This document shows positions 1,322 to 53,969 of a stretch of 64,000 nt of DNA, piece by piece. The notes below the pieces were generated by a model. That model did not search any database. It was not told the DNA's origin and saw only the letters and a program-made list of their open reading frames with translations. The position numbers and the translations under genes were made by a program. The first letter of the stretch is position 1. The number at the start of each line of letters is the position of its first letter. The stretch lies in assembly GCF_056712565.1 (NCBI RefSeq), contig NZ_CM160072.1; one strand, written 5' to 3'.

Positions 1322-3106
1322 ATGTGGTCAGACAAAGAGTCATCAGAAGACTACCTAAATTTTGGTGAAGTATCTCAGTTAGCCGTGGATGTACTTACCA
1401 CGAAAGATATGTTACCAGTATCTATCGGAATTTTTGGAAACTGGGGGGCAGGTAAATCCTCTCTGTTAAAACTGATAGAGCAAAAACTTGAGCAAGACGA
1501 CAAAGATTGGATTGTTATCAATTTTGACTCTTGGCTCTATCAGGGGTACGACGACACCCGTGCCGCACTTCTTGAAGTCATCGCTACAGAATTGACAAAA
1601 GCTGCTGAAGGTAATTCAGCCCTTATATCAAAAACTAAGAGACTCCTTAGTCGAGTTGATGGTTTTAGAGCTATGGGATTACTAGCTGAGGGTACAGCTT
1701 TAATGGCAGGATTACCTACTGGCGGTTTGCTTTCTAGGGGGATTGGTGCATTAAGAAATATCACCGATGGCATCCAGAGCCAGGAAGAGTATGAGGCTTT
1801 AGGCAATATAGCTAAAGAAGGTAAAGAAACTGCTTGTGGTTTGATTAAACCACAAACAAAAAAAAGCCCCCCTCAGCAGATTGATGCCTTTCGTAAGGAA
1901 TATGGGGAAATTCTAGAAGAACTTGGAAAGCCACTCATTGTGGTAATAGATAACCTAGACCGCTGTCTCCCTGCCAATGCTATCCATACACTTGAAGCTA
2001 TCAGGCTATTCCTTTTCTTGACTAATACAGCCTTTATTATTGCAGCAGATGAGGACATGATTCGCTCTTCTGTGGCTGATTACTTCAAAGGGGCATCACA
2101 GCGCCATCAAATAGATTATCTGGATAAGCTAATCCAGGTTCCTATTCGGGTGCCTAAGGCTGGGGTCCGTGAGATCCGTTCGTATCTGTTCATGCTTTAT
2201 GCCATTGAACATGGCTTAGAAGGCGAAAAAATAACTATGCTCCGTGAGGGCTTAGAGAAGGCGTTACAGCAATCCTGGAAAGATGAACCAATCTCACGTC
2301 AGGAGGCCTTAAAAATGACTGGTGAAGCGGATGATAGCAACCTCGCGCTGGCGTTTGCGCGTGCTGACCGTATTGCTCCCATTTTAGCCAACTCTCCAAT
2401 TATTCATGGTAATCCCAGGATCGTTAAACGCTTGTTGAATGTTGTGAAAATGCGATCTCAAATTGCGAAGCGACGAGCAATGCCTTTGGATGAAGCAATT
2501 ATTACTAAGCTAGTAATTTTTGAACGCTGTGTTGGAGTGGATGGCACCGCTGATTTATATCATCTCGTGGATATTGAACAAGGTGTTCCCCAGATACTTA
2601 AACAGCTTGACGATAATGGCGGTCAAATACCTACTGATGCACCAAAGACATGGACTGATAGTCCAACGACTAAATCTTTCATCAGTCAATGGGCCCAACT
2701 TGAACCTCGTCTTGGTGGGATTGACTTAAGGGCCGCCATATATCTGTCCCGAGAAACTATGCCAATAGGTGCATATGTGGTTGGTTTATCGCCATCTGGA
2801 CGGGAAGTACTAAATGCACTAATTGAATTGAAAAACACTAGTTCTCCTACAGCAGAAAACCTTTTGAAAGCACTTCCTCGTGAGGAGCAAATACCTGTAA
2901 TGGAAGGTTTAATTAACCAGTTACGGCAGGTATCAGATTGGGATCGTAAGCCCAGAGGCTTTTCCGGTGCATGTCTGTTGGCCCGCTACTCAACAGATGC
3001 AGCCAGCATATTAATTCGTTATCTACAGGAATTACAGTTGGGGATGAAACGACCAGCGTGGATGACTGCAGCATTAAAAGATGAACAATGGAATAAGGAC
3101 GCTTAA
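1322..3106 (+). CDS. qatA: KAP-family P-loop NTPase (QatA-like)
   Basis: Walker A GNWGAGKS, FDSWLYQGYDD motif after P-loop, Walker B VVIDNLDRC; 594 aa; first gene of 4-gene overlapping operon. Confidence 0.75.
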   Translation: MWSDKESSEDYLNFGEVSQLAVDVLTTKDMLPVSIGIFGNWGAGKSSLLKLIEQKLEQDDKDWIVINFDSWLYQGYDDTRAALLEVIATELTKAAEGNSALISKTKRLLSRVDGFRAMGLLAEGTALMAGLPTGGLLSRGIGALRNITDGIQSQEEYEALGNIAKEGKETACGLIKPQTKKSPPQQIDAFRKEYGEILEELGKPLIVVIDNLDRCLPANAIHTLEAIRLFLFLTNTAFIIAADEDMIRSSVADYFKGASQRHQIDYLDKLIQVPIRVPKAGVREIRSYLFMLYAIEHGLEGEKITMLREGLEKALQQSWKDEPISRQEALKMTGEADDSNLALAFARADRIAPILANSPIIHGNPRIVKRLLNVVKMRSQIAKRRAMPLDEAIITKLVIFERCVGVDGTADLYHLVDIEQGVPQILKQLDDNGGQIPTDAPKTWTDSPTTKSFISQWAQLEPRLGGIDLRAAIYLSRETMPIGAYVVGLSPSGREVLNALIELKNTSSPTAENLLKALPREEQIPVMEGLINQLRQVSDWDRKPRGFSGACLLARYSTDAASILIRYLQELQLGMKRPAWMTAALKDEQWNKDA

Positions 3107-3858
3107 TGGGAACATCACAATCAAGTAAAGGTCCAGGAGGTGGCTCTCCGCTGGTTCCACCATGGGCTGATGATCAGCCACAGCAACCGTTACCCTCGCC
3201 GCAAGAAAGGAGGTTTGCGCCATTTCGAGAATCGTTGGGAAATGCGGTATCAAATGGAAATCGAGCAGATTTCAGAAAAGCCATAGGGCACTACGCGCGA
3301 AAAGCCTCCGGAGGGAGCAGTAACGCTGCTCGGCGATTAGGGAGTGTCACGCAAGCTGGGGCCGAATTATTTGGGGCTTTAGTGGGAATGCCTTCGGCTC
3401 CCGGAGAACCAAGCATCGATTTGGGCAGTTTGGCAGGCCTTCCATGCGAAATAGCAATATCAACTATTGCTCAAGCTTTAACATCACAGGATGGTGACTC
3501 AGAAAAGATCTGTGCGGCCATGAACCATGCTTTAGTGGAGGCTCTTGATGGCGTAGAAATTTTCGATCCTCAAAAAATAACTGATGGTGTGATTGTTGAC
3601 ACAATGATTGGTTATCTAGCGGAAAGTATTTTCCTTCAGATGGTAATGGATTCTAATAGGGCATGGAACAAAGCAGATACACCTTCAAAGGCAATTCATG
3701 CAGAAATTGAACTCCGGGAATTGATTAAAGTTGTTGTTGATAAACATATGGCACCAAAACTTGCCGGTAACATAAGATCGTTCACACGAAACCAAATGGT
3801 AAAAATTGAACGTCAGGCCATTATTGAGGCCTGGCAAGAATGGGAGGCATACCAGTGA
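3106..3858 (+). CDS. qatB: Protein of unknown function (QatB-like position)
   Basis: 250 aa, Gly/Pro/Ser-rich N-terminus, no recognisable catalytic motif; start overlaps qatA stop, end overlaps next gene. Confidence 0.55.
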   Translation: MGTSQSSKGPGGGSPLVPPWADDQPQQPLPSPQERRFAPFRESLGNAVSNGNRADFRKAIGHYARKASGGSSNAARRLGSVTQAGAELFGALVGMPSAPGEPSIDLGSLAGLPCEIAISTIAQALTSQDGDSEKICAAMNHALVEALDGVEIFDPQKITDGVIVDTMIGYLAESIFLQMVMDSNRAWNKADTPSKAIHAEIELRELIKVVVDKHMAPKLAGNIRSFTRNQMVKIERQAIIEAWQEWEAYQ

Positions 3859-5159
3859 CACAATTAGTTTTCCATCATAAACATCACCATTTGCCGCCAG
3901 CAAGTGAGAAAGTGTTACCTGTTCAGCTATATGGATTAAGTGGTCAGAGGCGCGGAGATATATCTGTTATCGGGAATCCTGCGATTGATCGGATCAGACG
4001 TTTGGGAGTACAGCTTCCAGCTAAGGTCATGGATTTTCTGAGTGTTGCATTAGCAGTAACTGCAGCAGATACTTTCGTTCAGCGTGAAAGTTCCGAGGAT
4101 GGTTGGACCCGCCAATTGTCGTTACGACTCCCCCTTCATGAACCATCCAGATGGATTAGTCTAAAGAAAGAACTTGAGAGTGCTTTGCATTTTCTTAGTG
4201 GAGACATCTGGGATTTCGAATTTTGTGACGATGGTTATGCACCGCCAGAGCCTTATAGCCAGCATTCAAGGCATCGTCTGATTAAGCTAAAAGGGCTTGA
4301 CTGTGTCAGCTTATTTTCAGGAGGTCTGGATTCAGCTATTGGTGCAATAGATCTTCTGGCTGCAGGGCGCGCTCCACTTTTGGTTAGTCATGCTTATAAG
4401 GGGGACAAGTCTCGTCAAGATCAGATCGCTGAAAAATTAAGTGGCCAATTTTCGCGCTTTGAGATTAATGCTGACCCACACATTTATCAAGGCGTGACTG
4501 ATATTACGATGCGAACTCGTAGCCTCAATTTTCTTGCCTTTGCGGCCGTAGGTGCTTGTGCCGTACAAGAGATATCTCAACAAGAAAAGATTGATTTGTT
4601 CGTACCTGAAAATGGATTTATCTCATTAAATGCACCACTTACTCCACGGCGGATAGGTTCGCTGAGCACACGAACAACACATCCACATTTTATTACGAGC
4701 ATACAAAAGATCTTTGATGCGCTCGGTATTTCTTGTCAAATAATCAATCCATATCAGTTTAAGACAAAAGGAAAAATGATCTCCGAATGTTCAAATAAGC
4801 AGCTCTTATCTAAAATTGTGGAAAGTACAGTATCCTGCAGTCATTGGAAACGAATGGGGCAGCAATGTGGGGTATGTATACCGTGTATCATTCGACGAGC
4901 ATCACTTCATGCAGGGGGAATTAGTAGAGATGTTGAATATATTTTCCAGTCCTTAGCTAAAGTAATGAATGAAATAGATCGCAGGGACGACCTGATCGCC
5001 CTTAGGATTGCGATCACGCAGAAATCGACTTTGAAAATAGGTACATGGATTGCCAAAAGTGGCCCTTTGCCTACGGCAGAATTTGATAATTTCAAGCAAG
5101 TATTTAAGGATGGCCTAGATGAGGTTGAAAGCTATTTACTGAGTGAGAACATAGTATGA
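3840..5159 (+). CDS. qatC: QueC-like PP-loop ATPase family protein (QatC-like)
   Basis: PP-loop SGGLDS; C-terminal Cys cluster CSHWKRMGQQCGVCIPC resembling QueC zinc site; about 150 aa extra N-terminal region; 439 aa. Confidence 0.7.
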   Translation: MGGIPVTQLVFHHKHHHLPPASEKVLPVQLYGLSGQRRGDISVIGNPAIDRIRRLGVQLPAKVMDFLSVALAVTAADTFVQRESSEDGWTRQLSLRLPLHEPSRWISLKKELESALHFLSGDIWDFEFCDDGYAPPEPYSQHSRHRLIKLKGLDCVSLFSGGLDSAIGAIDLLAAGRAPLLVSHAYKGDKSRQDQIAEKLSGQFSRFEINADPHIYQGVTDITMRTRSLNFLAFAAVGACAVQEISQQEKIDLFVPENGFISLNAPLTPRRIGSLSTRTTHPHFITSIQKIFDALGISCQIINPYQFKTKGKMISECSNKQLLSKIVESTVSCSHWKRMGQQCGVCIPCIIRRASLHAGGISRDVEYIFQSLAKVMNEIDRRDDLIALRIAITQKSTLKIGTWIAKSGPLPTAEFDNFKQVFKDGLDEVESYLLSENIV

Positions 5160-5881
5160 GCATCGATATGCACTGTCATCTAGACTTATATCCTCGGCCA
5201 GACCTCGTGGCTGAAGAAAGTAAGCGTCGAGGGACTTATATTCTGTCGGTGACAACAACACCTAAAGCATGGCATGGTACTTCTTTATTGGCTAAAGAAA
5301 GTCAACGAATCCGAACTGCTCTTGGGCTACATCCTCAAATCGCGCATCAAAGATCGCATGAGTTAGACCTGTTTGATTCATTGCTTTCGGAAACTAAGTA
5401 TGTAGGGGAAATAGGGCTTGATGGTGGACAGGGATTTAAAGAACATTGGGATATTCAATTGAAAGTGTTCCGACACATTCTCAACAGTGTAAATCGGGCT
5501 GGTGGCAAGATTATGACTATCCATAGTCGGGGAAGTGCATCAGCGGTGCTTGATGAGATTGAAAATATCGATGGGGTGGCAATATTGCATTGGTTCACTG
5601 GAACACCTAAGCAGCTTGAAAGGGCAATTGATTTAGGATGCTGGTTCTCAGTGGGGCCTGCTATGCTCGATACAATAAAGGGTAAGGCCTTAGTTTTGAA
5701 AATACCCAAATCACGCATTCTTACAGAAACAGATGGGCCATTTGCTAAGTTTCGTAATGACCCACTAATGCCATGGGATAGTGGGATTGCAGAGAAACAG
5801 TTAGCCGCATTATGGGGGATTAGTCAGATGGAGGTTAATGCTCAGCTAGTTGATAATTTTAAGGTATTATGTACATCATAA
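5156..5881 (+). CDS. qatD: TatD-family metal-dependent hydrolase/nuclease (QatD-like)
   Basis: N-terminal DMHCHLD (HxH), EIGLD, C-terminal TETDGPF motifs typical of TatD; 241 aa; start overlaps qatC stop. Confidence 0.75.
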   Translation: MSIDMHCHLDLYPRPDLVAEESKRRGTYILSVTTTPKAWHGTSLLAKESQRIRTALGLHPQIAHQRSHELDLFDSLLSETKYVGEIGLDGGQGFKEHWDIQLKVFRHILNSVNRAGGKIMTIHSRGSASAVLDEIENIDGVAILHWFTGTPKQLERAIDLGCWFSVGPAMLDTIKGKALVLKIPKSRILTETDGPFAKFRNDPLMPWDSGIAEKQLAALWGISQMEVNAQLVDNFKVLCTS

Positions 5882-6433: not shown

Positions 6434-7009
6434 TCAGGGCGTTTTCCAGATGACAGCTATAGTAAAAATGATCGCCAGACTGGCGAGAAAGCAGAGCGAA
6501 AGCGGGATTTTGTCCTTCAGTGTCAGGTTCAGCTCTTCTTCAACCCATGCTTTTTCAAATTCACAGTAAAATTTATAATGTGCGTACCAGTTACTTCCGA
6601 AGATCTGTTTGCTGATGACCGTGCCGTAAAACCGGGACATGATAGCGTCGATGGATTGTTGTGTACGCTGATAGTCAAAGTTTGCATCGCTTTTTACGTT
6701 GCGGTAGATGACTTCAAGTTCATTAAAAATTTTGGTCTGCTCAATCCCCGCACTTTCATAACTCTGCTTTTCCGAGTCATAAAACTGAATGTACATTGTA
6801 GCAACACCAAATATAATTAATATCGCGGAAATGACGTTTGTGGCCAGCTCAGGAATAAAAAGGGCGAACACACCGACAGCAAGAGAAATAAAGCTAATCC
6901 AACCGGATGCCTTACAAATCAGATCATAGGTGGCAAAGTTTTTCTTAGCGCCAAATCCAACGTTATAACCATGTCGGGCGATTAATTTCAGCATCTCTGA
7001 TTGCGTCAT
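6434..7009 (-). CDS. Small membrane protein, SLATT-like putative effector partnered with nucleotidyltransferase
   Basis: 191 aa; two central hydrophobic helices (WISFISLAVGVFALFIPELATNVISAILIIFGVATMYIQ) plus C-terminal hydrophobic segment; 7-nt gap after upstream gene. Confidence 0.5.
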   Translation of the reverse strand: MTQSEMLKLIARHGYNVGFGAKKNFATYDLICKASGWISFISLAVGVFALFIPELATNVISAILIIFGVATMYIQFYDSEKQSYESAGIEQTKIFNELEVIYRNVKSDANFDYQRTQQSIDAIMSRFYGTVISKQIFGSNWYAHYKFYCEFEKAWVEEELNLTLKDKIPLSLCFLASLAIIFTIAVIWKTP

Positions 7010-7016
7010 AAAAACC

Positions 7017-8345
7017 TCAGCTTATGGGAACTTCAATCTGGGCCCGGGCAACCACAACCTCATTTTTTATCACATAGCATTCTACCATGTGATCTCCGCG
7101 GAAGTCGGTAGTTTCTTTCTTCGTACAGTAGCCGCCGTCCGAAACGATTTGTCCCCGGATCATATTTCTTCTGCGTGCTTCGTCACCCACGTTCAGTACC
7201 TTCCACATAACGGTGTAGGGTTCCTCTGCCTCCATTTCTGTCAAGTCTGCCCGGAAAAGGAGAGATTTTCGAGCGGAGAGGCGGAATCTTCTGATAAGCA
7301 TCTCCCTCAGGCTTCTGGGAGGGAAACCATCCTGGGTTACGGTACAGTCAAGGTTGAGTGAGTACCTGATATCCACCGGATATTTATCCTCTATAAACTC
7401 TTCGGTATCGGTCCAGGGAACAGCATCTGCCGCATGCGATTCCAGACCAAGACGGGCTTCCATAATACCCACTTTACGTCTGGGGAAGGCTCGTCCGAAC
7501 ACTTTGCGCCAGCGGTCATTTTCACTGGCAGCCCCCTCAGCGTCTAAGGCATCACAACATAATTCATACGCGTGTTTCGCTGCCCGGCCAAACCAGGGAG
7601 ATTTAACACGTACATGCTGATTACTGCCTAACGCGAGATACCTTTCCTTTCTCTCCTCATTTGACAGATATTCAAAAAAGTCTCTGGCGAGGGCTCCCAG
7701 GCTGCCATTTCCGGTATTGTCATAATCTGATGTTGATGAAAGAAAGCGATACGCTAGTGTGTCTATCAGTAAGCCACCCATATTGACGCCATGCAGGTTC
7801 TTCCAGGCTCTGATCATTTTACACAGCTTGCGCAGATTATTGGATTTATCTCGCGAAAATGCGGTCATGGCCGCCTTTTCGTGAAGAGGTTTTGTAATGC
7901 GCCATGCTCCTCCATTATAGCTTTCAGGGAATTTAAAGCTGTCATCATCCTGTCTGAATACAGGTTGAACCTCGACATAAAAGTTTTTAAAGATGATCTG
8001 AACAACCAGTCTGTCCTTTTTCACAGTCTGGTCAGGATATTCTTCCGCCAGAATGTTTCTGACATCTGTAAGCAATGCAGACTGACCATTATCCTTACGG
8101 TTATAATATTCATACTGATTGGGGGGCATAATATAAAGCATATCCAGATCGGATATGCCTTTTATTGCGGTATGTCTGCCTACTGACCCCACTTTCAAGC
8201 GGTTTGCTACCCGGGAACTCGTTCCTCTGAACGCAAGATTTAATGACTTGGTTATTTTTCGATAGTGATAGCTGATCTTTTTTGCCTGTTTGAGGTCAAG
8301 ATTCAAATTTTCAAGAAATTCGCTGAACAATTCCCTGTGGCTCAT
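7017..8345 (-). CDS. SMODS/CD-NTase-like nucleotidyltransferase with about 120-aa C-terminal extension
   Basis: Pol-beta-type NTase signature GSVGRHTAIKGISDLD (GS-x10-[S]DhD) and downstream acidic strand YVEVQP; 442 aa. Confidence 0.55.
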   Translation of the reverse strand: MSHRELFSEFLENLNLDLKQAKKISYHYRKITKSLNLAFRGTSSRVANRLKVGSVGRHTAIKGISDLDMLYIMPPNQYEYYNRKDNGQSALLTDVRNILAEEYPDQTVKKDRLVVQIIFKNFYVEVQPVFRQDDDSFKFPESYNGGAWRITKPLHEKAAMTAFSRDKSNNLRKLCKMIRAWKNLHGVNMGGLLIDTLAYRFLSSTSDYDNTGNGSLGALARDFFEYLSNEERKERYLALGSNQHVRVKSPWFGRAAKHAYELCCDALDAEGAASENDRWRKVFGRAFPRRKVGIMEARLGLESHAADAVPWTDTEEFIEDKYPVDIRYSLNLDCTVTQDGFPPRSLREMLIRRFRLSARKSLLFRADLTEMEAEEPYTVMWKVLNVGDEARRRNMIRGQIVSDGGYCTKKETTDFRGDHMVECYVIKNEVVVARAQIEVPIS

Positions 8346-10859: not shown

Positions 10860-11627
10860 CTCGGTAGTGCATCCAATTAGTAGAATATGTGTTTTTCGAT
10901 AAATGCTCCGATCACTTTTTCGTGGATCTCAACTGAGCGTGAGAAGCAGATTGTTTACGAGCCAACCGCTTAATGTGGGTGCGTAGCGTCAGATTATTAC
11001 GCTCAATGCGTTGGGTGAATATTTTGCCGGTCAGATGCTTATTCTTCGGCACCACCCGGCCATAGCTGTCCCAGTCATCGCTGGTGAGCATGCCGATGTT
11101 GAAGGGTGTAAGCAGTGCCAGTAGCTCCCGGCACGTTTGATCGGTTCGGGGACCAAAAGTGTAGGCCAGTACACCGCCTGTTTTGGTGTTGTACGCGTAC
11201 CAGAGCCAGTGTAGCCGGGCTTTACTGCCAACGTAGCTCCATTGCTCATCAAGCTCGCAGATAAGCGCCACATCAGCATGGGCAACAGGCGAAGAAGTTA
11301 TTTGCGTTGGTGCGAGTTTTTTAAAGTCCGGATGATGGTGTTAATACCAATTTTCAGTGTCCTGGCGGTATCGCGAACCCCGGCACCATTAAAGGCCATT
11401 TCAGTGATCATCTCTTTCATACCCGGCTTACGTGCTTGATAAGTATAAGTGAGCTGAAACACACGGTGGCAGTCACGGCAGCGAAATCTGTCACGGCCTT
11501 TAGGGTTCTGACCATGGCGGTAAACCTGAGCTGACTGACAACGGGGACAATGAATATTAACGCTGGCCATGAGATAACCTCAAAAGCCCGTATTATACAT
11601 CAGATTCAACCAATTAGAGGCATCACC
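10860..11627 (-). mobile_element. Divergent IS1-family insertion sequence
   Basis: InsA-like (11298..11570) and InsB-like (10912..11271) ORFs; ends resemble IS1 IRs (GGTAGTGCATCCAA... / ...GGCATCACC); InsA only about half identical to the canonical IS1 InsA at 17483. Confidence 0.65.
11298..11570 (-). CDS. insA: IS1-family InsA-like protein (divergent isoform)
   Basis: 90 aa, Zn-finger CPRCQS..CRDCHR and HTH resembling IS1 InsA. Confidence 0.7.
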   Translation of the reverse strand: MASVNIHCPRCQSAQVYRHGQNPKGRDRFRCRDCHRVFQLTYTYQARKPGMKEMITEMAFNGAGVRDTARTLKIGINTIIRTLKNSHQRK

Positions 11628-11822
11628 CTTTCCTACATTCGTAGGACTTTGATTACATATAGCAAGGGTTAATTCTTATATACATAGAATAAATTAGGAA
11701 TATAATGAATTTTATCGTGACGACCTTATTTATAATTAATTTATATTGTCAGAGAAATTAGTGTCCACAACATGAAGCCTTACAAAGAGATTCTATGATT
11801 TAAAAAAAATAAGAGCCAGCTT

Positions 11823-13292
11823 ATGCATATCGATTCGACTGAAAAAAATAATAAACAAAAGTTGGGCTTGCTTGCGCTAACATCCATTGTCGTGAGCTCG
11901 ATGATCGGCAGCGGCGTTGACGGACTCCCCCAGAATATGGCGGAGAATTCTGCCGTGGGCCCGGTGGCGATAGCATGGATAGTCTGTGGTATCGGCATGT
12001 TTTTCATCTCCAGAACTTTTATCGTGCTGTCAAACATTAGACCTGATCTCCAGTCAGGAGTTTATATGTATGCCCGGGAAGGGTTCGGCCGATTTACGGC
12101 ATTTAACGTCGCCTGGGGCTACTGGCTGATGACTATATTCAGCAACGTCGCCTTTGCCATTATGGTGATGGATACGCTGAATTATTTCTTACCAGGTGAT
12201 TTCAAGGGAGGGAACAATATTCCTTCCGTTATCGGTGCCTCTTTGCTGATATGGGGATTCAACTTTTTAGTCCTCTCCGGTACCCGCATTGCCGGGTCGA
12301 TTAACATCGTCGGCACGCTGGCCAAACTGATCCCGCTGGTGGCCTTTATTATTATTCTCATGCTGTTTATGAAGTACACCACGTTCGCAGATAACGTCTG
12401 GGGGCACAGCGCGAGTAAGGCCAGTCAGGACCTAGGCTCTATTTTCTCACAGGTAACTTCACCGCTTAGCGTGGCACTCTGGAGCTTCATCGGCGTTGAG
12501 GGGGCTGTCGCTCTTTCCGGTCGGGCCAAAAATAAACGCGACGTGGGTAAAGCCACATTCATTGGCTTCGTTGTATCACTGATTATCTGTCTGCTGGTCT
12601 CCATCCTGCCGTTTGGCGTGCTGACTCAACATGAGCTCAGCGCAATTCCAACCCCATCCACCGCCGGTATTCTGAAGATTGTTGTCGGTGAATGGGGGAA
12701 GATTATGATTATCTTGGGGGTGCTGATTTCGGTGCTTACCAGCTGGCTGGCGTGGACCATCATCTGCGCCGAACTGCCTATGGTGGCCGCGCAGAACGGC
12801 ACATTCCCGAAACCGTTCAGCAAAAAAAATGTGAAGGGTTCGGCCTCGGTTTCGCTTTATATAAGCAGTGCGTTTATGCAAATCGTCGTACTTCTGGTCT
12901 ACTTTTCTAACGATGCCTGGCTTGCAATGCTGGCTATCTCTACCCTGACCGTTTTACCTGCGTATTTAATGACCACGGCATACCTGTTTAAACTATGTAT
13001 TAGCGGCGAGTATGCCAGCTATACCACGAATCACAGCCGCAGCGCCGCGCTGGTCAGCAGTATTATCGGCTTTGTATTCTGCCTGTTTATGTTCTACGCC
13101 AGTGAAATCAAATATCTGGCGATGGTTCCGGTGCTGCTTACGCTGGGCGTGCCCCTGTTTATCTGGGCAAGAAAAAAAGACGATCGCGCAGATAAAATAT
13201 TTACGCTACGCGAACTGGCATTTTTTATTTTACTGCTGGTCCTCGACATCATTGTTTTTATTCTACTGCATTATAAAACGATACATTTTTAG
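11823..13292 (+). CDS. APC-superfamily basic amino acid antiporter, ArcD/YdgI-like (paralog 1)
   Basis: 489 aa polytopic; N-terminal KLGLLALTSIVVSSMIGSGV..LPQNMA and GVYMYAREGFG, FIGVEGAV..SGRAKNKRDVGKAT motifs as in arginine:ornithine-type antiporters. Confidence 0.7.
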   Translation: MHIDSTEKNNKQKLGLLALTSIVVSSMIGSGVDGLPQNMAENSAVGPVAIAWIVCGIGMFFISRTFIVLSNIRPDLQSGVYMYAREGFGRFTAFNVAWGYWLMTIFSNVAFAIMVMDTLNYFLPGDFKGGNNIPSVIGASLLIWGFNFLVLSGTRIAGSINIVGTLAKLIPLVAFIIILMLFMKYTTFADNVWGHSASKASQDLGSIFSQVTSPLSVALWSFIGVEGAVALSGRAKNKRDVGKATFIGFVVSLIICLLVSILPFGVLTQHELSAIPTPSTAGILKIVVGEWGKIMIILGVLISVLTSWLAWTIICAELPMVAAQNGTFPKPFSKKNVKGSASVSLYISSAFMQIVVLLVYFSNDAWLAMLAISTLTVLPAYLMTTAYLFKLCISGEYASYTTNHSRSAALVSSIIGFVFCLFMFYASEIKYLAMVPVLLTLGVPLFIWARKKDDRADKIFTLRELAFFILLLVLDIIVFILLHYKTIHF

Positions 13293-13396
13293 TCCAGATT
13301 AATTCACAGCAAGTTAAGGTGACGATAATGTCTGTTTCTTGGGCATGACATCCTCACAGTTAAATACTATCTGAACAGTAACCGTGGAGACACCTA

Positions 13397-15766
13397 ATGA
13401 AATTTAACCACAATCTTTTATTTATTTCCTCACAATATCTTGATGGCGACAACCCTTCGCAGCAGGTACTGGAAGAGCTTCAAACCGAACTCGCGGAACG
13501 CGGTTTTAAAATTCATATCACGCACCAGATCTCTGATGGATTAAAAATCATCGAAAAAAGCCCCCAATACAGCGGGATTGGTTTTTACTGGGAGCCAGAC
13601 AATCCGACCTTTGCAGAAGAGCTACAGCACTTTATCAGCATATTCCGCAAAAGAAATGCCACGACGCCGCTGATAATTTTCTCAGAACAGAATATTACCG
13701 ATCGTATCCCACTCGACGTCTTAAAAGAGGTCAGCGAATATGTTTATCTGTTCTCTGAATCCGCAGCCTTCACTGCCAATCGACTGTACTCCTTAGTCCA
13801 CCGCTATGCGGATAAGCTTCTTCCTCCCTACTTTAAAACCCTTAAGGACTTTACCGAGGACGGTGACTATTACTGGGACTGCCCGGGGCATATGGGGGGA
13901 ATGGCCTATCTGAAACATCCTGTTGGCATTGAGTTCATTAACTTCTTTGGCGAAAACATGATGCGCGCTGATATTGGCGTGGCTACCGCGGAGATGGGGG
14001 ATTATCTGATCCACGCCGGACCGCCTAAAAAATCGGAAGAAATTGCGGCCCGACTGTTTGGCTCTGATTGGACCTTCTACGGTGTTTCCGGCTCATCGGG
14101 GTCGAACCGTATTGTGGCCCAGGCTGCGGTTGGCGCAGATGAAATTGCCATTATTGACCGAAATTGCCACAAGTCACTTAATCATGGCCTGACCTTGTCT
14201 CAGGCAAGGCCGGTTTACCTGAAACCTACCCGCAACGCGTGGGGGCTGATTGGGCCTATCCCGACCGGGCGCCTGAAGAAGGCCAGTATTGATGCGCTGG
14301 TGGCAAACAGCCGACTGGCATCTGGTGCGGTCAGCCAGTCCCCGTCCTACGCCGTGGTAACCAACTGCACCTATGATGGCTTCTGTTATAACGTGAACGA
14401 TGTAGTCAGACACCTGGGTGAAAGCGCACCGCGCATCCATTTTGATGAAGCATGGTATGCCTATGCGCGTTTCCATCCGCTATACCAGAGTCGCTATGCA
14501 ATGGACGCGGAGGAAACGCCAAATCGTCCAACCCTATTCGCCGTACAGTCCACCCATAAAATGCTGCCCTCACTCTCCATGGCCTCAATGATTCATGTGA
14601 AGAAAAGCGATCGCGCGCCGCTTAATTTCGATGACTTTAACGATGCCTTTATGATGCACGGCACGACCTCACCCTACTACCCGATCATTGCATCAATTGA
14701 TGTGGCAGTAAGCATGATGGAGGGTGAATCCGGTTATTCGCTTGTGCAGGAGTCAATTGAAGAAGCGATTGCCTTCCGTAAAGCCGTGGTCAGCGTCAAG
14801 CGCCAGCTCCAGGAGCAGGAAGGTGGTGACGCCTGGTTCTTCGATGTGCTTCAGCCAACCGAAGTGCAGGACAGCGATTCTGGGCAGCGATACAGTTTTG
14901 AAGAGGCACCCGTATCGCTGCTGAGCCACAGCGCCGACTGCTGGTCGCTGCGCTCCGGTGAGCGCTGGCACGGTTTTGCCGATGATGATCTGGTCGAAAC
15001 CAACAGTATGCTCGATCCAGTAAAAGTGACCCTGACTTGTCCAGGGATCGGCCCGAAGGGAGAATACCAGAAAAACGGTATTCCGGGATATTTGCTGACC
15101 CGTTTTCTCGATGACCGTCGCATTGAAATTGCCCGTACTGGTGACTACACCGTGCTGATCCTGTTCTCCGTCGGCATCACCAAAGGCAAATGGGGAACTC
15201 TGATTGAAAGCCTGCTGGCCTTTAAAAAGCATTACGACAATGACGATCTGGCCACAGATGCTATCCCGTCGCTGAAAGCGCATTCTCCACACTACGACAC
15301 GCTAACCCTCAAGGAGCTATGTCAGATAATGCATGAAAAAATGGATGAGCTGGAGCTGATGTCGCATATCAACGACGCGGTAAACACCGATCCGGAACCA
15401 GTTATGACCCCGGCAGAAGCCTATCAGAAAGTCGTACGCTACAAAACCGAGCATATCCGGCTGGATGATTTTAGCGGCAGAATTGCCGCCAGCATGCTCG
15501 TCCCATATCCCCCAGGCATTCCTGTACTGATGCCGGGCGAACGGATGCCGCAAGGTAACAAGGGCATTATTGGCTATCTGCGCGCCCTGCAGGAATTCGA
15601 TAAGCAATTCCCAGGTTTTGAACATGAGATCCAGGGCGTTAACGTCGATGAAAACGGGGACTTCTGGGTCAGAGCGATTGTGGAAGAAGAACGCGATGGG
15701 CAGTCGCTACCCGGCCACATAACCTTTAAACGCCAGGTCTCTGGTATTAAAAAGGGCCGCCAGTAG
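13397..15766 (+). CDS. PLP-dependent Orn/Lys/Arg decarboxylase, AdiA-like (biodegradative arginine decarboxylase family)
   Basis: 789 aa; DRNCHKS, VTNCTYDGFCYN, HFDEAWYAYARF, QSTHKMLP (PLP lysine), GKWGTLIESLLAFKKHYD closely parallel recalled AdiA motifs, less so CadA/SpeF. Confidence 0.8.
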   Translation: MKFNHNLLFISSQYLDGDNPSQQVLEELQTELAERGFKIHITHQISDGLKIIEKSPQYSGIGFYWEPDNPTFAEELQHFISIFRKRNATTPLIIFSEQNITDRIPLDVLKEVSEYVYLFSESAAFTANRLYSLVHRYADKLLPPYFKTLKDFTEDGDYYWDCPGHMGGMAYLKHPVGIEFINFFGENMMRADIGVATAEMGDYLIHAGPPKKSEEIAARLFGSDWTFYGVSGSSGSNRIVAQAAVGADEIAIIDRNCHKSLNHGLTLSQARPVYLKPTRNAWGLIGPIPTGRLKKASIDALVANSRLASGAVSQSPSYAVVTNCTYDGFCYNVNDVVRHLGESAPRIHFDEAWYAYARFHPLYQSRYAMDAEETPNRPTLFAVQSTHKMLPSLSMASMIHVKKSDRAPLNFDDFNDAFMMHGTTSPYYPIIASIDVAVSMMEGESGYSLVQESIEEAIAFRKAVVSVKRQLQEQEGGDAWFFDVLQPTEVQDSDSGQRYSFEEAPVSLLSHSADCWSLRSGERWHGFADDDLVETNSMLDPVKVTLTCPGIGPKGEYQKNGIPGYLLTRFLDDRRIEIARTGDYTVLILFSVGITKGKWGTLIESLLAFKKHYDNDDLATDAIPSLKAHSPHYDTLTLKELCQIMHEKMDELELMSHINDAVNTDPEPVMTPAEAYQKVVRYKTEHIRLDDFSGRIAASMLVPYPPGIPVLMPGERMPQGNKGIIGYLRALQEFDKQFPGFEHEIQGVNVDENGDFWVRAIVEEERDGQSLPGHITFKRQVSGIKKGRQ

Positions 15767-15840
15767 GCGGGGGAAAGAACAATACCGTCGGATCGCCTGC
15801 AATCCGACGGCAATATTATAGAATAGCTGAGGGAAACGTT

Positions 15841-17340
15841 ATGGCAGAGCAATCTTCAGATGTAAAAAATAGTGACAATAGCGCCGGAGGACATAAGCTG
15901 GGGCTTATATCCCTCATCGCTATTGTCGTTAGCTCCATGCTGGGAGGCGGCGTTTTCAGTCTGCCGCAAAACACGGCGGCCTCTTCTGCACTAGGGCCAG
16001 TAATCATTGCATGGATTATTGCCGGGATCGGTATTTATTTTATCGCAAACTCCTTTCGCGTACTATCAGATCTGCGCCCGGACCTTCAGGCTGGAGTGTA
16101 TATGTATGCCCAGGAAGGTTTTGGTTCCTTTATTGGCTTTAACGTCGCCTGGGGCTACTGGCTGATGACCGCATTTGGCAACGTTGCCTTTGCGGTAATT
16201 TTAATGGATGCTTTTAATCAGTTTATGCCGGGGGTTTTTACGGATGGTAATAATCTGAACTCCATTATCTGCGGCTCAGTGCTGATCTGGGGCTATAATT
16301 TTCTTGTTCTGTCCGGGACGAAAGTGGCCGGATTTGTTAACACCTTGGGAACCATCGCCAAGCTCGTCCCTCTGATCCTATTCGTATTACTGCTGGGTGT
16401 GCTGATCGATTATTCGGACCTGTTTAAAAACTTTTGGGGAGAATCACCCGCGATCCTCAGTGGCAACGGAAATGACGCCGCACCAGTATCGCTGCTGTCT
16501 CAGATTCTGGCACCGATGACCGTAACGCTCTGGGCCTTTATTGGCGTCGAGGGAGCGGTTGTTCTATCCGGACGTGCCAAAAATAAACAGGACGTAGGGA
16601 AAGCCACACTGATCGGCTTTCTGCTGGCGCTAATTATTTATATGTTAATGTCCATTCTGCCGTTCGGTGTAATGCCTCAGGCAGAACTAGCGCAGGTCAG
16701 TAACCCCTCTACCGCAGGCGTGCTCGCCCACGTTGTCGGTCAGTGGGGCGACTGGCTGATGAGCGCGGGGCTGATTATTTCTGTTCTGGCCGGCTGGCTT
16801 GCCTGGACCATGCTATGCGCTGAAATACCGATGGTCGCAGGACAGAAAGGCGCTTTCCCGCGCGCGTTTGCCCGAACGAACAGTAAACAGGCGGCCAATG
16901 TGTCACTGTGGGTTAGTAGCTTTGTGATGCAGGCGGCCATGTTACTTGTTTATTTTTCAAATAATGCTTGGACCACCATGTATAATATCAGTGCGCTGAT
17001 GGTTGTTCCGGCCTATATTACCACCACGCTGTATCTGACCAGTATTTGCAGAAACGGAAAATATGATCAGTATGCAAAAAAAGGCCGCAGGCTGGCTTTG
17101 TCCAGCGGTGTTTTAGGCTCGCTATTCTGTCTGTTTATTCTTTACGCCAGCCAGATTGAGTATGTTGCATTAATTCCTATCCTGTTGACCTGTGGTCTGC
17201 CGGTCTTTATCTGGTCAAGAAAAGAAAAAAATGATGGTCAGCCGATATTTACCAAAAAAGAGCTGATTTATCTGATTATGCTGTTGCTGTGCGATATTAT
17301 CGTCGTTGCCCTGTTTATTGGTGGATATTTAAAGGTATAA
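15841..17340 (+). CDS. APC-superfamily basic amino acid antiporter, ArcD/YdgI-like (paralog 2)
   Basis: 499 aa; same motif set as 11823..13292 (KLGLISLIAIVVSSMLGGGVFSLPQN..). Confidence 0.7.
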   Translation: MAEQSSDVKNSDNSAGGHKLGLISLIAIVVSSMLGGGVFSLPQNTAASSALGPVIIAWIIAGIGIYFIANSFRVLSDLRPDLQAGVYMYAQEGFGSFIGFNVAWGYWLMTAFGNVAFAVILMDAFNQFMPGVFTDGNNLNSIICGSVLIWGYNFLVLSGTKVAGFVNTLGTIAKLVPLILFVLLLGVLIDYSDLFKNFWGESPAILSGNGNDAAPVSLLSQILAPMTVTLWAFIGVEGAVVLSGRAKNKQDVGKATLIGFLLALIIYMLMSILPFGVMPQAELAQVSNPSTAGVLAHVVGQWGDWLMSAGLIISVLAGWLAWTMLCAEIPMVAGQKGAFPRAFARTNSKQAANVSLWVSSFVMQAAMLLVYFSNNAWTTMYNISALMVVPAYITTTLYLTSICRNGKYDQYAKKGRRLALSSGVLGSLFCLFILYASQIEYVALIPILLTCGLPVFIWSRKEKNDGQPIFTKKELIYLIMLLLCDIIVVALFIGGYLKV

Positions 17341-17482
17341 GTCCGAGTTAAATCTTTACTGGGCTAGTAATGCCGCCTTTTAAACAAGAAGGGCGGCAAT
17401 CTTACTGAAATTAGTATGCTGCAAATCGGTAATGCTGCCAACTTACTGATTTAGTGTATGATGGTGATTTTAAGGTGCTTGC

Positions 17483-17758
17483 GTGGCTTCCATTTCCATC
17501 AGATGTCCTTCCTGCTCCGCTACTGAAGGCGTGGTGCGTAACGGCAAAAGCACTGCCGGACATCAGCGCTATCTCTGCTCTCATTGCCGTAAAACATGGC
17601 AACTGCAGTTCACTTACACCGCTTCTCAACCCGGTACGCACCAGAAAATCATTGATATGGCCATGAATGGCGTTGGATGCCGGGCAACTGCCCGCATTAT
17701 GGGCGTTGGCCTCAACACGATTTTACGTCACTTAAAAAACTCAGGCCGCAGTCGGTAA
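17483..17758 (+). CDS. insA: IS1 InsA
   Basis: [40 protein letters not shown]... 91 aa. Confidence 0.9.
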
Positions 17759-18180
17759 CCTCGCGCATACAGCCGGGCAGTGACGTCATCGTCTGCGCGG
17801 AAATGGGCGAACAGTGGGGCTATGTCGGGGCTAAATCGCGCCAGCGCTGGCTGTTTTACGCGTATGACAGGCTCCGGAAGACGGTTGTTGCGCACGTATT
17901 CGGTGAACGCACTATGGCGACGCTGGGGCGTCTTATGAGCCTGCTGTCACCCTTTGACGTGGTGATATGGATGACGGATGGCTGGCCGCTGTATGAATCC
18001 CGCCTGAAGGGAAAGCTGCACGTAATCAGCAAGCGATATACGCAGCGAATTGAGCGGCATAACCTGAATCTGAGGCAGCACCTGGCACGGCTGGGACGGA
18101 AGTCGCTGTCGTTCTCAAAATCGGTGGAGCTGCATGACAAAGTCATCGGGCATTATCTGAACATAAAACACTATCAATAA
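17677..18180 (+). CDS. insB: IS1 InsB (transposase frame; expressed as InsAB' by frameshift)
   Basis: 167-aa ORF overlapping insA in -1 frame. Confidence 0.85.
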
Positions 18181-18646
18181 GTTGGAGTCATTACCGACAT
18201 TGTCAAGATGAACAGCATGCATTGTAACAGTCTGCAGTTTATGTTCTCCGTGGATAATTATTCTTATTTCATGGTGATTTTTGTTATATTTTAAAATGCA
18301 TATCTCACCATTTAGTTTTTTATATCACAAAAACATAGTGATGCAATCATACACACCTGCCTCTATCGTACAGAGAAAACGGGCAATTATTTGTATTATT
18401 CCTTCATAACGACTTCAGTATACAGGATGACCGCAACCACGCTCCTTCTCCTGCCCGGGCGAAGTGCCTGGTTCAGACAATTACATTAACTGGCTGAAAT
18501 TTTCGACGCGGTACAAGCCTCCCTGCTTTGAAAGGTGGCCTGGCGCTGCAATTTTTTACTTTTGTTTTTGTATCCGGAAAAACACATCTGCAAGAATCAT
18601 TATTCTCTTGCCTGAAGCTATCCAGCATCCTCAGATATTTCGCACT

Positions 18647-19162
18647 TTATGAGCTGGCATCAGAAAAATGTGCCAGTAATTTTTTATTAATGACTTCAAA
18701 CAGTTCCTGTTCATCATGAGTCAGATAATCCCAGATTTCTTTCAGATACATGCTTTGTGCAAGAGTGAGCCTCTGAATAAAAAACATACCTTCAGATGTC
18801 AGACTGATTTTTTTAGCACGGCGATCCTCCCTGCTATCCGTCCTTTTTACATATCCGGCTTTTTCTAAAAAATCTGTAATGCGGGTAATATTAGTTCTGG
18901 TAAACTGAAGTTTCTGGCTTATCTCTGAAGGTGACAGACAATGGTTCTCCGCTGCGAATAATGTGGTGAGAACCATATATGCTGAGTGATTTATTCCATA
19001 CGCCCCCAGAAATTCAGATATATTATCCTGCATTCTTTTATTTGTGCGAATACAGAGCTGCATCAACAAATGTTCCCGAAAGGGATATGCGGGGTCTTTG
19101 TTTTTTTGGTGTCTGATTATTTTTTCTAATGTGTCTGTGTTATTCATTTCATTATTCTCCAT
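18647..19162 (-). CDS. MarR-family transcriptional regulator, PapX/SfaX-like (fimbrial-operon-associated)
   Basis: winged-HTH region LSPSEISQKLQFTRTNITRITDFLEKAGYVKR; recalled similarity to 17-kDa PapX-type proteins; start trimmed to MENNEM. Confidence 0.6.
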   Translation of the reverse strand: MENNEMNNTDTLEKIIRHQKNKDPAYPFREHLLMQLCIRTNKRMQDNISEFLGAYGINHSAYMVLTTLFAAENHCLSPSEISQKLQFTRTNITRITDFLEKAGYVKRTDSREDRRAKKISLTSEGMFFIQRLTLAQSMYLKEIWDYLTHDEQELFEVINKKLLAHFSDASS

Positions 19163-19364
19163 ATTACTGAAACACACTGTCTGTGTACAAGCGCGCATCA
19201 GTCATCCGGTAAACATCGACTTTCCACTACAATTTATTCCTACCTGATTTCTGTATGACAGAGTAGTCCCGACAGGCAGACGGATAAATTCCCGCAGGTA
19301 AAAGAACATAAATGCTGGCTGCTGACAAGTCTGTGAAAAAGGATTATTGTAGTGGTTCACAAAA

Positions 19365-20157: not shown

Positions 20158-20172
20158 GGTAATGACTCCAAC

Positions 20173-20676
20173 TTATTGATAGTGTTTTATGTTCAGATAA
20201 TGCCCGATGACTTTGTCATGCAGCTCCACCGATTTTGAGAACGACAGCGACTTCCGTCCCAGCCGTGCCAGGTGCTGCCTCAGATTCAGGTTATGCCGCT
20301 CAATTCGCTGCGTATATCGCTTGCTGATTACGTGCAGCTTTCCCTTCAGGCGGGATTCATACAGCGGCCAGCCATCCGTCATCCATATCACCACGTCAAA
20401 GGGTGACAGCAGGCTCATAAGACGCCCCAGCGTCGCCATAGTGCGTTCACCGAATACGTGCGCAACAACCGTCTTCCGGAGCCTGTCATACGCGTAAAAC
20501 AGCCAGCGCTGGCGCGATTTAGCCCCGACATAGCCCCACTGTTCGCCCATTTCCGCGCAGACGATGACGTCACTGCCCGGCTGTATGCGCGAGGTTACCG
20601 ACTGCGGCCTGAGTTTTTTAAGTGACGTAAAATCGTGTTGAGGCCAACGCCCATAATGCGGGCAGTTGCCCGGCAT
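20173..20676 (-). CDS. insB: IS1 InsB
   Basis: identical 167-aa product. Confidence 0.85.
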
Positions 20677-20870
20677 CCAACGCCATTCATGGCCATATCA
20701 ATGATTTTCTGGTGCGTACCGGGTTGAGAAGCGGTGTAAGTGAACTGCAGTTGCCATGTTTTACGGCAATGAGAGCAGAGATAGCGCTGATGTCCGGCAG
20801 TGCTTTTGCCGTTACGCACCACGCCTTCAGTAGCGGAGCAGGAAGGACATCTGATGGAAATGGAAGCCAC
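20595..20870 (-). CDS. insA: IS1 InsA
   Basis: identical 91-aa product. Confidence 0.9.
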
Positions 20871-21399
20871 GCAAGCACCTTAAAATCACCATCATACACT
20901 AAATCAGTAAGTTGGCAGCATCACCCAATCTGCTGACAGACGAAGATAATGAACCCGTTATGGTTTTTAACGGAGAGAGGAATGTACTGGCAGACAGTCT
21001 GAAACCACAGCCTCTGATTCTTCCGGTCAAGGGAAAATAAGCGTAATGTTCATCACCAGATTATGTACGATGAGTTTTCCACTGTTTATAGCAATTATCT
21101 TGCTAATAACCAGACAGGAGTAACCAGACCAACCGAAAACACCGGGAAGGTGATTACCCGCTGGCAGAGGAAATCCGGTTTTTTTTGATGTCAGCCATAA
21201 CGTGTTTGACAATAAAGCATCATGAAAGGGTGTTAATGAGTCCATGGGATAATTCATAAAAATAATTTACTGTGTTATCCTTTTCAAAAGAAATATTCAG
21301 AAGATAACCCCTGGCTGACAACCAGGGGAAGGGAGCATTAACAGTGTTATTATTGGTGAATAAATTATTACTTGTGTGCAGGATACACTAATGCAATAT

Positions 21400-24161: not shown

Positions 24162-24237
24162 TGGTGCCCGGACTCGGAATCGAACCAAGGACACGGGGAT
24201 TTTCAATCCCCTGCTCTACCGACTGAGCTATCCGGGC
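24162..24237 (-). tRNA. pheU: tRNA-Phe (GAA)
   Basis: Reverse complement reads GCCCGGATAGCTCAGTCGGTAGAGCAGGGGATTGAAAATCCCCGTGTCCTTGGTTCGATTCCGAGTCCGGGCACCA. Confidence 0.95.
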
Positions 24238-53670: not shown

Positions 53671-53746
<76 letters not shown>

Positions 53747-53782
53747 AAATTTGAAAAGTGCTGTAAAGCACAGACCACCCAA

Positions 53783-53858
<76 letters not shown>

Positions 53859-53893
53859 AAATTTGAAAGTGCTGTAAAGCACAGACCACCCAA

Positions 53894-53969
<76 letters not shown>

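Follow-up and report, generated by a model that had tools for sequence, protein, structure and literature searches.

A horizontally acquired decarboxylase/antiporter cassette in the pheU island of Escherichia coli, with histidine/histamine as a possible substrate/product pair

Introduction

What would a decarboxylase encoded between two paralogous amino acid antiporters do in Escherichia coli, and which amino acid would it use? The question is raised by three genes in a 64,000-nucleotide stretch of contig NZ_CM160072.1 (RefSeq assembly GCF_056712565.1). This stretch, referred to here as the window, comes from the pheU island of a phylogroup B2/extraintestinal pathogenic E. coli (ExPEC) chromosome. 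An earlier sequence-only reading of this DNA had predicted three open reading frames (ORFs) of 489, 789, and 499 amino acids on the same strand, and all three were recovered as predicted (Table 1). We refer to the products as T1, DC, and T2. RefSeq names T1 and T2 'basic amino acid/polyamine antiporter' and DC 'Orn/Lys/Arg family decarboxylase', and a literature search on the E. coli cassette genes returned nothing relevant.

Our analysis identifies T1-DC-T2 as a horizontally acquired, operon-like unit bracketed by insertion sequences (ISs). By homology, its products very probably form a proton-consuming decarboxylation/antiport module, and we see an even chance that the substrate/product pair is histidine/histamine. 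The region from 11500 to 17600 was 100% identical in strain S88, APEC O1, and the type strain ATCC 11775, and the cassette itself (11823-17340) was 99.9% identical in CFT073. Of 5426 complete E. coli genomes, 494 (about 9%) contained at least 80% of it. Nearly all matches were chromosomal, and 492 of the 511 matching records were at least 99% identical.

The decarboxylase belongs to a clade of its own

DC contains all three Pfam domains of its family (OKR_DC_1_N, 1e-15; OKR_DC_1, 1e-144; OKR_DC_1_C, 6e-46). Together with an S-x-H-K motif, these class it among the wing-domain Orn/Lys/Arg decarboxylases (LAOdc) of the aspartate aminotransferase (AAT) fold. The motif carrying the pyridoxal phosphate (PLP)-binding lysine (K388) reads S-T-H-K, and conservation extends to the aspartate of FDEAW and the histidine of NCHKS.

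The best hidden Markov model (HMM) and PDB matches were both AdiA. To this extent the sequence-only reading, which had aligned the enzyme with AdiA rather than CadA, was right. The preference is marginal, as DC is 39% identical to AdiA, 36-37% to CadA/LdcC, and 32% to SpeF, and AdiA and CadA are equally distant from each other. The score on the AdiA model NF011603 (739.9 bits) was also well short of its cut-off of 1167. The CadA/LdcC models NF011929 and NF011928 gave 560 and 621 bits (cut-offs 1056 and 968), and the SpeF and SpeC models gave 425 and 429 bits (cut-offs 1310 and 794). Altogether, DC scored below every NCBIfam equivalog or subfamily cut-off.

As had been noticed earlier, DC is longer than AdiA (755 residues), SpeF (732), and CadA (715). 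Its excess over AdiA consists of 4 N-terminal residues, a 3-residue insert, and a 26-residue basic C-terminal tail (residues 764-789) ending in IKKGRQ. The tail is kept in the main clade and in archaeal members, and is missing from the HDC2-type proteins of Photobacterium described below as well as from AdiA, CadA, and SpeF.

A database search revealed a compact family of 766-802 residues whose members are 52-87% identical, and the protein cluster containing DC held 1333 member sequences. Hosts included Proteus, Providencia, Hafnia, Salmonella diarizonae, Citrobacter, Klebsiella sp., Commensalibacter, Bordetella, Alcaligenes, Orrella, Acinetobacter, Shewanella, Photobacterium, Victivallis, Acidobacteriota, and methanogens. 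In neighbor-joining trees built with reference proteins and 100 bootstraps, the DC family was monophyletic (100/100) and sister to an AdiA-like group (84/100), with CadA/LdcC and the ornithine decarboxylases outside it. Phylogeny was the check proposed by the sequence-only reading, which would have been overturned by an ordinary cadBA locus. The trees instead placed DC in a separate clade and its carriers with ArcD-like proteins. Judged by sequence, DC is none of AdiA, CadA, or SpeF, and belongs to a distinct clade of about 790-residue enzymes.

Signature residues of the DC family

Alignment with AdiA identified 24 positions that are conserved in at least 94% of the core DC family and differ from AdiA. 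Seventeen of the 24 were also kept in all seven members of a distant Acidobacteriota/archaeal subclade. For example, the family has DYYWDCPGHM where AdiA has EYSWAAPGHQ, GVATAEMGDY in place of GIERTSLGSL, and SLNH in place of SIEQ. Further instances are VQSTHKMLPSLSMASM versus THSTHKLLNALSQASY in AdiA and RRIEIARTGDYT versus HGIVPTRTTDFQ. AdiA residues E117, E193, R194, E259, Q393, and T571 were all replaced in DC, by S120, A196, T197, N262, M395, and A579, respectively, such that three acidic residues of AdiA (E117, E193, and E259) were lost from the family.

The remodeling also extends to residues characteristic of the other decarboxylases. The glutamate found as E526 in CadA and E532 in SpeF was alanine (A579) in every family member, while a new glutamate, E577, appeared two residues earlier. 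The family thus reads R575-x-E577-x-A579 where CadA and SpeF have G-x-V-x-E. As a control, we considered the AdiA of locus L097, which is 58% identical to E. coli AdiA and lies beside a related transporter. It had the AdiA residue at 22 of the 24 positions, and conservative changes (T to S and Y to F) at the other two, arguing that the signature differences are no alignment artefact. From their proximity to the PLP motifs along the sequence, the signature positions may line the substrate pocket.

Two ArcD-like antiporters with nearly identical predicted binding sites

Both carriers exceeded the cut-off of the APA-family model TIGR00905 (T1, 486.7 bits; T2, 493.0; cut-off 409). Neither reached that of the ArcD model TIGR03810 (441 and 450 bits; cut-off 591), of NF040512 (histam_anti_2), an 'exception' model for ArcD-like histidine-histamine carriers (437 and 415; cut-off 725), or of TIGR04298 (his_histam_anti; 121 and 134; cut-off 750). 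AdiC-type partners were not indicated either, with 145 and 155 bits on NF007929 (AdiC; cut-off 574), and scores on the AdiC, CadB, and PotE models as a whole (102-155 bits) fell far below the ArcD-type scores. T1 and T2 as orthologues of the known histidine-histamine carriers were considered and rejected, as both were far below the NF040512 and TIGR04298 cut-offs. P0126, an HdcP-like representative with no adjacent hdc gene, was no closer to T1 and T2 than ArcD types were.

Identity is 55% between T1 and T2 and drops to 37-38% against YdgI and 21-31% against AdiC, CadB, and PotE. Bootstrap values were 100 for the T1 clade, 90 for the T2 clade, 99 for the two combined, and 100 for their split from the AdiC/CadB/PotE branch. 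These results bear out the earlier view that the carriers are paralogs from the ArcD/YdgI branch and not from that of AdiC, CadB, and PotE. Orthologues from Proteus, Bordetella, and Acinetobacter were 63-68% identical for T1, and those of T2 were 76-84% identical. Such values across Gamma- and Betaproteobacteria indicate that the duplication is old.

The two carriers differ in distribution. A T2-type gene lay directly downstream of DC in all family members of at least 60% identity with downstream sequence, including loci devoid of T1. T1 was found only in Enterobacterales, Alcaligenaceae, Commensalibacter, and Acinetobacter. This pattern marks T2 as the core partner and T1 as an accessory. At positions equivalent to the AdiC binding site, both have M96, T97, N101, F104, W202, I205, E208, W293, S357, and V361. 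Their main difference there is the motif in transmembrane helix 1, which is G-S-G in T1 and G-G-G in T2. The sequence-only reading had offered two explanations for the paired carriers, namely two substrate/product pairs or import and export split between them. The almost fully common binding-site residues argue against two different pairs and favor one pair handled with different kinetics. T1 is an old duplicate of the ancestral, obligatory carrier T2, and probably serves the same pair with altered kinetics or pH gating.

Relatives of these carriers also occur beside another type of enzyme. In locus L098, a 453-residue phosphatidylserine-decarboxylase-like protein (pyruvoyl type; PF12588 and PF02666) is encoded among three ArcD-like permeases, one of which, P0121, is the closest T1 outgroup. 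This looks like another uncharacterized decarboxylase/antiporter module.

Predicted mechanism and substrate

The three OKR_DC domains, the S-T-H-K, FDEAW, and NCHKS motifs, and the APA-family carriers all point to the decarboxylation/antiport class of mechanism. Within this class, the sub-cut-off scores, separate clade, and remodeled signature argue that DC is not of the arginine, lysine, or ornithine type. We model the cycle on the homologous pairs AdiA/AdiC, CadA/CadB, and HdcA/HdcP. An ArcD-like exchanger would bring in the external amino acid as internal amine leaves. The cytoplasmic PLP decarboxylase would remove the carboxyl group as CO2, at the cost of one cytoplasmic proton per turnover. 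The amine would then exit by the same exchanger or exchangers against fresh substrate, and the net effect would be an alkalinized cytoplasm and a membrane potential.

The main clue to the substrate comes from Photobacterium. Four loci contained a cluster of a permease, a DC family member of 766-771 residues, and a histidyl-tRNA synthetase (HisRS): L007 from P. kishitanii, L094 from a related metagenomic contig, and L102 and L103 from P. phosphoreum genomes. The DC family member was the only decarboxylase in each cluster, and HisRS was full length in three of them and split into two ORFs in L103. A tRNA-synthetase paralogue beside a decarboxylase and an antiporter is a hallmark of biogenic-amine clusters, with HisRS marking those for histidine decarboxylation (PMC8465708, PMC12072131). 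In L007, the locus scored, HisRS reached 449 bits (cut-off 287) and the antiporter reached 738 bits on TIGR04298, just below the cut-off of 750. A histidine decarboxylase cluster defined by linked HisRS and an antiporter above its cut-off is therefore nearly complete in L007, while the E. coli cassette has neither component. A search of the main-clade loci for HisRS homologues found none, L007 and L094 being the only matches among the loci covered; L102, L103, and the window lay outside that search, and the S88 annotation of the stretch includes no hisS.

The Photobacterium proteins are 62% identical to E. coli DC. Of the 351 alignment columns with at least 95% conservation in the E. coli clade, their subclade has 328 in common with it, every signature position among them, which favors a single specificity across the family. 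DC likewise has the traits of an HDC2-type clade, being monophyletic with the Photobacterium proteins (100/100) and identical to them at the signature positions.

These loci resemble a published alternative to canonical histidine decarboxylase. Fuertes-Perez et al. described Photobacterium genomes devoid of canonical hdc (PMC8671102). In that work, 11 strains of P. phosphoreum and 1 of P. carnosum had hdc2 and a histidine-histamine antiporter but no canonical hdc (PMC8671102). Mou et al. call the enzyme reported by Bjornsdottir-Butler (2020) 'newly discovered' and set it apart from both classical histidine decarboxylase (HDC) classes (PMC8465708). Among the records listed for the 90%-identity cluster of the 770-residue enzyme, we found several distinct P. 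phosphoreum sequences (one on 25 contigs) and one from P. carnosum. This species pattern matches that of the hdc2 strains and supports the identification of HDC2 with the Photobacterium family members. HDC2 of P. phosphoreum reportedly has histidine decarboxylase activity. From the locus description and the species distribution, the Photobacterium members are very probably HDC2. The sequence-only reading had held that the substrate could not be assigned. That view now appears too pessimistic, as the Photobacterium cluster of histidine/histamine antiporter, decarboxylase, and HisRS fits the published hdc2 locus (PMC8671102). There is also circumstantial agreement with phenotype. Listed histamine producers include Proteus vulgaris, P. 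penneri, and P. mirabilis, Providencia rustigianii, Alcaligenes faecalis, Hafnia alvei, Citrobacter freundii, and E. coli (PMC9227395), and the cassette or the DC family was found in each of these genera.

Several observations keep our assignment of histidine to the E. coli cassette evenly poised. The equation of HDC2 with the DC family comes from locus and species patterns, and the mapping of the signature onto the pocket from sequence position. The E. coli clade is separated from the Photobacterium proteins by its 62% identity, its carrier type, and the absence of a linked hisS, and the E. coli cassette has no linked regulator. NF040512 gave T1 and T2 no higher scores than the ArcD model did. 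P0122, the closest outgroup of the two carriers (50% identity to T1), has a genuine AdiA-type enzyme as its partner, so this branch of carriers can serve arginine/agmatine and does not discriminate between histidine and arginine. The Acidobacteriota and methanogen contexts described below show non-redundancy with arginine decarboxylation and name no substrate. Finally, histamine production by E. coli is described as no more than low (PMC9227395).

Alternative readings

A second, divergent arginine decarboxylase system would import arginine and export agmatine, with ArcD-like carriers in place of AdiC. Many database records do call these proteins 'arginine decarboxylase', and the placement of P0122 beside a true AdiA-type enzyme, the AdiA best matches by HMM and PDB, and the sister relationship to AdiA-like enzymes (bootstrap 84) are all in keeping with that name. 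Yet DC reached only 740 of the 1167 bits required by the AdiA model, and it departs from AdiA at all 24 signature positions with loss of three acidic residues, where the L097 AdiA retains 22. The host already has adiA/adiC, one locus combines a family enzyme with both AdiC and an AdiA-like enzyme, and the Photobacterium members lie in a histidine context. We consider an arginine system unlikely. A lysine or ornithine decarboxylase, forming cadaverine or putrescine, that arose inside the Adc-like radiation is a little less likely again. It would not be unprecedented, as Carriel et al. noted the lysine decarboxylase of Burkholderia AIU 395 within this radiation and documented substrate shifts and hidden paralogy in the Adc group (PMC6257575). 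DC is also 36-37% identical to CadA/LdcC, and the family has M166, H263, G582, Y584, and H646 in common with CadA. However, every family member has A579 in place of the CadA E526/SpeF E532 glutamate, DC stayed below the cut-offs of the Ldc and Odc models, and no CadB- or PotE-type carrier is linked.

DC could instead be promiscuous, or specific for a different cationic or unusual amino acid such as citrulline, 2,4-diaminobutyrate, homoarginine, or one of the methylated basic amino acids, with histamine a side activity in Photobacterium. M96, T97, F104, and V361 of T1 and T2 (AdiC numbering) are unlike the residues of ArcD, HdcP-like, and AdiA-partner carriers, the C-terminal tail of DC is basic, and the distant Acidobacteriota/methanogen subclade has no linked antiporter except in L008. 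HisRS linkage in four loci (three intact) is, by contrast, specific to histidine, and no positive evidence singles out any of the other amino acids. We hold such a substrate to be unlikely, on a par with arginine. That the E. coli cassette currently has no function, and is carried along silently or in decay by the pheU island, is very unlikely in our estimate. It is IS-bracketed, lacks the AraC/LysR regulators and FomA-type porin seen in other taxa, and has an AT-rich, unconserved upstream region. Against decay, all three ORFs are intact, 494 complete genomes carry the cassette, 492 of 511 records are at least 99% identical, and the protein cluster has 1333 members. Such conservation points to purifying selection or, failing that, to an intact unit that has spread recently.

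Conservation and mobility of the cassette

T1-DC-T2 or DC-T2 was found in Proteus, Providencia, Citrobacter, Klebsiella sp., Commensalibacter, Alcaligenes, Bordetella, Acinetobacter, Victivallis, Crenobacter, and Ignatzschineria, and the flanks of T1-DC-T2 were unrelated from genus to genus. Mobility was further reflected by plasmid copies. The full cassette was present on a 171-kb Providencia rettgeri plasmid (NZ_CP086258.1; L100), and DC-T2 on a conjugative IncFIB plasmid of Salmonella Macclesfield (NZ_CP022118.1; L101). On both plasmids, fimbrial operons adjoin the cassette or its DC-T2 core, and an unannotated ORF of porin-like size follows T2 on that of P. rettgeri.

Some loci carried additional genes. 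An AraC-type regulator lay upstream in Proteus and Alcaligenes, with a Bordetella trematum homologue about 4 kb upstream on the opposite strand, and the Klebsiella sp. cassette was accompanied by a LysR regulator. In Providencia rustigianii, Acinetobacter, and two Bordetella species, a FomA-family porin gene directly after T2 creates a four-gene version. All of these extras were absent at the E. coli cassette, where IS elements abut both ends. Amine-catabolic neighbors (agmatinase and similar) were looked for at the cassette loci and none were found.

More distant members occur in other settings. An Acidobacteriota metagenome-assembled genome (L008) combines a DC family member with a bona fide AdiC and an AdiA-like enzyme, that is, two decarboxylases and one antiporter. 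This coexistence implies non-redundant substrates. Elsewhere in the distant Acidobacteriota/methanogen subclade no antiporter was linked; in L008, the AdiC gene follows the enzyme. In Methanosarcina, the DC family member lies beside a glutamate decarboxylase. Two of the three Methanothrix-type loci have both a glutamate decarboxylase and an AdiA-like enzyme, and L056 has the AdiA-like enzyme only.

Genomic location and neighboring features

The cassette lies about 7 kb from the tRNA-Phe gene pheU, inside an island whose integrase abuts pheU. In E. coli K-12, cadC-cadB-cadA directly follow pheU, and the sequence-only reading had taken the cassette to occupy the cadBA position. This proved wrong. 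In S88, an island of about 64 kb that contains the cassette separates pheU from an intact cadC-cadB-cadA, such that the cassette is an addition and not a replacement of cadBA. Other cargo of the S88 island includes a grp glycyl-radical microcompartment locus, the Qat defense system, and IS elements.

On its left, the cassette is bounded by a frameshifted remnant of an IS1-family transposase gene, two ORF fragments of which match NF033558 (transpos_IS1). A complete IS1 forms the right bound, and a near-identical copy lies further right in inverted orientation. The remnant and the right IS1 gave no blastn match to each other, and we rejected an IS1 composite transposon, as the left element is a different, decayed IS1-family copy. 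Between the two inverted copies is a gene for an MprA/EmrR-like MarR-family regulator (121 bits; cut-off 157), which is probably unrelated cargo.

The region upstream of T1 is AT-rich (31% GC). It contains a promoter-like site whose match was not above shuffle expectation. In the E. coli region we found no linked regulator gene, no Rfam match, and no conserved or histidine-rich leader peptide, and the upstream sequences of E. coli, Klebsiella sp., and Citrobacter sp. could not be aligned. A GC-rich palindrome of 30 nt with a 13-pair stem occupies part of the 74-nt spacer between DC and T2 and could influence T2 expression or mRNA stability.

Beyond these features, S88 annotation assigns to the same island a QatABCD anti-phage system (KAP NTPase, QatB, QueC-like QatC, and TatD-like QatD). 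It is adjoined by a SLATT-domain protein paired with a 442-residue protein carrying a nucleotide-binding domain. The window also contains three tandem tRNA-Gly(GCC) genes, an ordinary glyVXY-type array.

Table 1. Coordinates of the cassette, its surroundings, and related loci
Feature	Sequence	Coordinates	Strand	Description
T1	Window	11823-13292	+	489-aa APA-family (ArcD-like) antiporter, accessory paralogue
DC	Window	13397-15766	+	789-aa wing-domain AAT-fold PLP decarboxylase of a distinct clade; putative HDC2-type histidine decarboxylase
C-terminal tail of DC	Window	15686-15766		Residues 764-789
T2	Window	15841-17340	+	499-aa APA-family (ArcD-like) antiporter, universal partner of the DC family
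Upstream region of T1	Window	11571-11822	+	AT-rich; promoter-like site 11679-11706
Palindrome	Window	15783-15812	Stem listed on -	Within the DC-T2 spacer
IS1-family transposase remnant	Window	10877-11570	-	Left bound; divergent; 'IS1 family transposase, frameshifted' in S88 annotation
Complete IS1	Window	17428-18195	+	Right bound; 768 bp
Inverted IS1 copy	Window	20158-20925		Near-identical to the right IS1
MprA/EmrR-like regulator gene	Window	18647-19198	-	MarR family
Qat/SLATT region	Window	1322-5881; 6434-8345	+; -	From S88 annotation
tRNA-Phe (pheU)	Window	24162-24237		
tRNA-Gly(GCC) array	Window	53671-53969	+	Three tandem genes
cadC-cadB-cadA	S88	4,615,409-4,620,874		Intact, beyond the island
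FomA-family porin genes	L030	12085-13137		
	L006	9992-11017		
	L019 and L020	~12.1-13.1 kb		
ORF of porin-like size	L100	12582-13607		Unannotated
Acidobacteriota locus	L008	6001-12753		DC family member, AdiC, and AdiA-like enzyme
Methanogen loci	L028/L029	6482-10442		Distant DC family members
	L056-L058			Distant DC family members
Pyruvoyl-type locus	L098	1734-6449		Decarboxylase-like protein among ArcD-like permeases

Comparison with known systems

The closest counterpart to the cassette is the putative hdc2 cluster of P. phosphoreum. Its enzyme is 62% identical to DC and belongs to the same clade (bootstrap 100), and an amino-acid/amine antiporter of the APC superfamily likewise adjoins it. 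The cluster differs in having one AdiC/PotE-like carrier of the TIGR04298 type, a dedicated HisRS, and an enzyme devoid of the 26-residue tail, whereas the E. coli cassette has two ArcD-like carriers, no hisS, and the tail. By HMM and tree, the nearest characterized group is AdiA/AdiC (AR3), which has the same fold, three-domain architecture, wing domain, PLP-lysine, and predicted proton-consuming cycle. Here the differences are the 39% identity, the replaced signature, carriers only 29-31% identical to AdiC, and the absence of an adjacent AdiY-type regulator in E. coli.

The sequence-only reading had called the module non-canonical. This stands insofar as the cassette differs from ordinary cadBA, adiAC, and speF-potE loci. 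The pairing of two carriers with one decarboxylase does have precedent, in the hdcT1-hdc-hdcT2-hisRS cluster of Morganella (PMC12072131) and in antiporter duplication around hdcA (PMC8465708). The Morganella/Klebsiella cluster similarly encodes one decarboxylase between two paralogous antiporters (PMC12072131, PMC8465708). It uses a classical PLP-dependent histidine decarboxylase and adiC-like carriers (PMC8465708) in place of an enzyme of about 790 residues from the Orn/Lys/Arg family and ArcD-like ones, and on layout the resemblance is one of analogy.

The cadCBA operon beside pheU occupies the same chromosomal neighborhood and represents the same class of inducible decarboxylase/antiporter module. 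It is nonetheless a separate, intact locus in the same genome, and DC is 36% identical to CadA and the carriers 25-26% to CadB. The ArcD/YdgI arginine:ornithine antiporters belong to the same APA sub-branch as T1 and T2, which are 37-38% identical to YdgI. T1 and T2 differ from them in scoring below the ArcD cut-off, forming their own clade (bootstrap 99), having distinct residues at AdiC-equivalent positions, and being linked to a decarboxylase rather than the arginine deiminase pathway.

Discussion

The DC clade has in Photobacterium HDC2 its only, and probable, characterized member, and the cassette is uncharacterized in E. coli despite its presence in CFT073 and the type strain. Gale reportedly described a strain-variable histidine decarboxylase of E. 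coli in the 1940s, an activity that is not known to have been assigned to a gene. DC could be this enzyme.

We tentatively propose, with somewhat less than even confidence, that the clade of about 790-residue enzymes is a third class of histidine decarboxylase, built on the AAT fold with a wing domain, beside the pyruvoyl and group-II PLP classes. It would be mobile on islands and plasmids and would be the source of histamine in 'hdc-PCR-negative' (polymerase chain reaction) members of Proteus, Providencia, Hafnia, Citrobacter, and Alcaligenes, as well as in about 9% of complete E. coli genomes, among them the B2/ExPEC strains CFT073, S88, and APEC O1 and the type strain.

Even if the substrate is another amino acid, the cassette would add to Gad, Adi, Cad, and SpeF/PotE one more decarboxylation system of the acid-resistance type in E. 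coli. Its composition also shows that recruitment as decarboxylase partners has extended to ArcD-like carriers, besides those resembling AdiC, CadB, and PotE. If histidine is the substrate, an enzyme class has been overlooked by current hdc PCR assays and genome surveys, one of which states that it may miss this type of enzyme (PMC8465708), and the many 'weak histamine producers' devoid of hdc would be explained. ExPEC and the Proteus and Providencia of the urinary tract would then make histamine through a widespread and conserved set of island genes. As a host-active mediator, histamine is relevant to inflammation of the bladder and gut, to asthma-linked gut microbiota, and to food poisoning.

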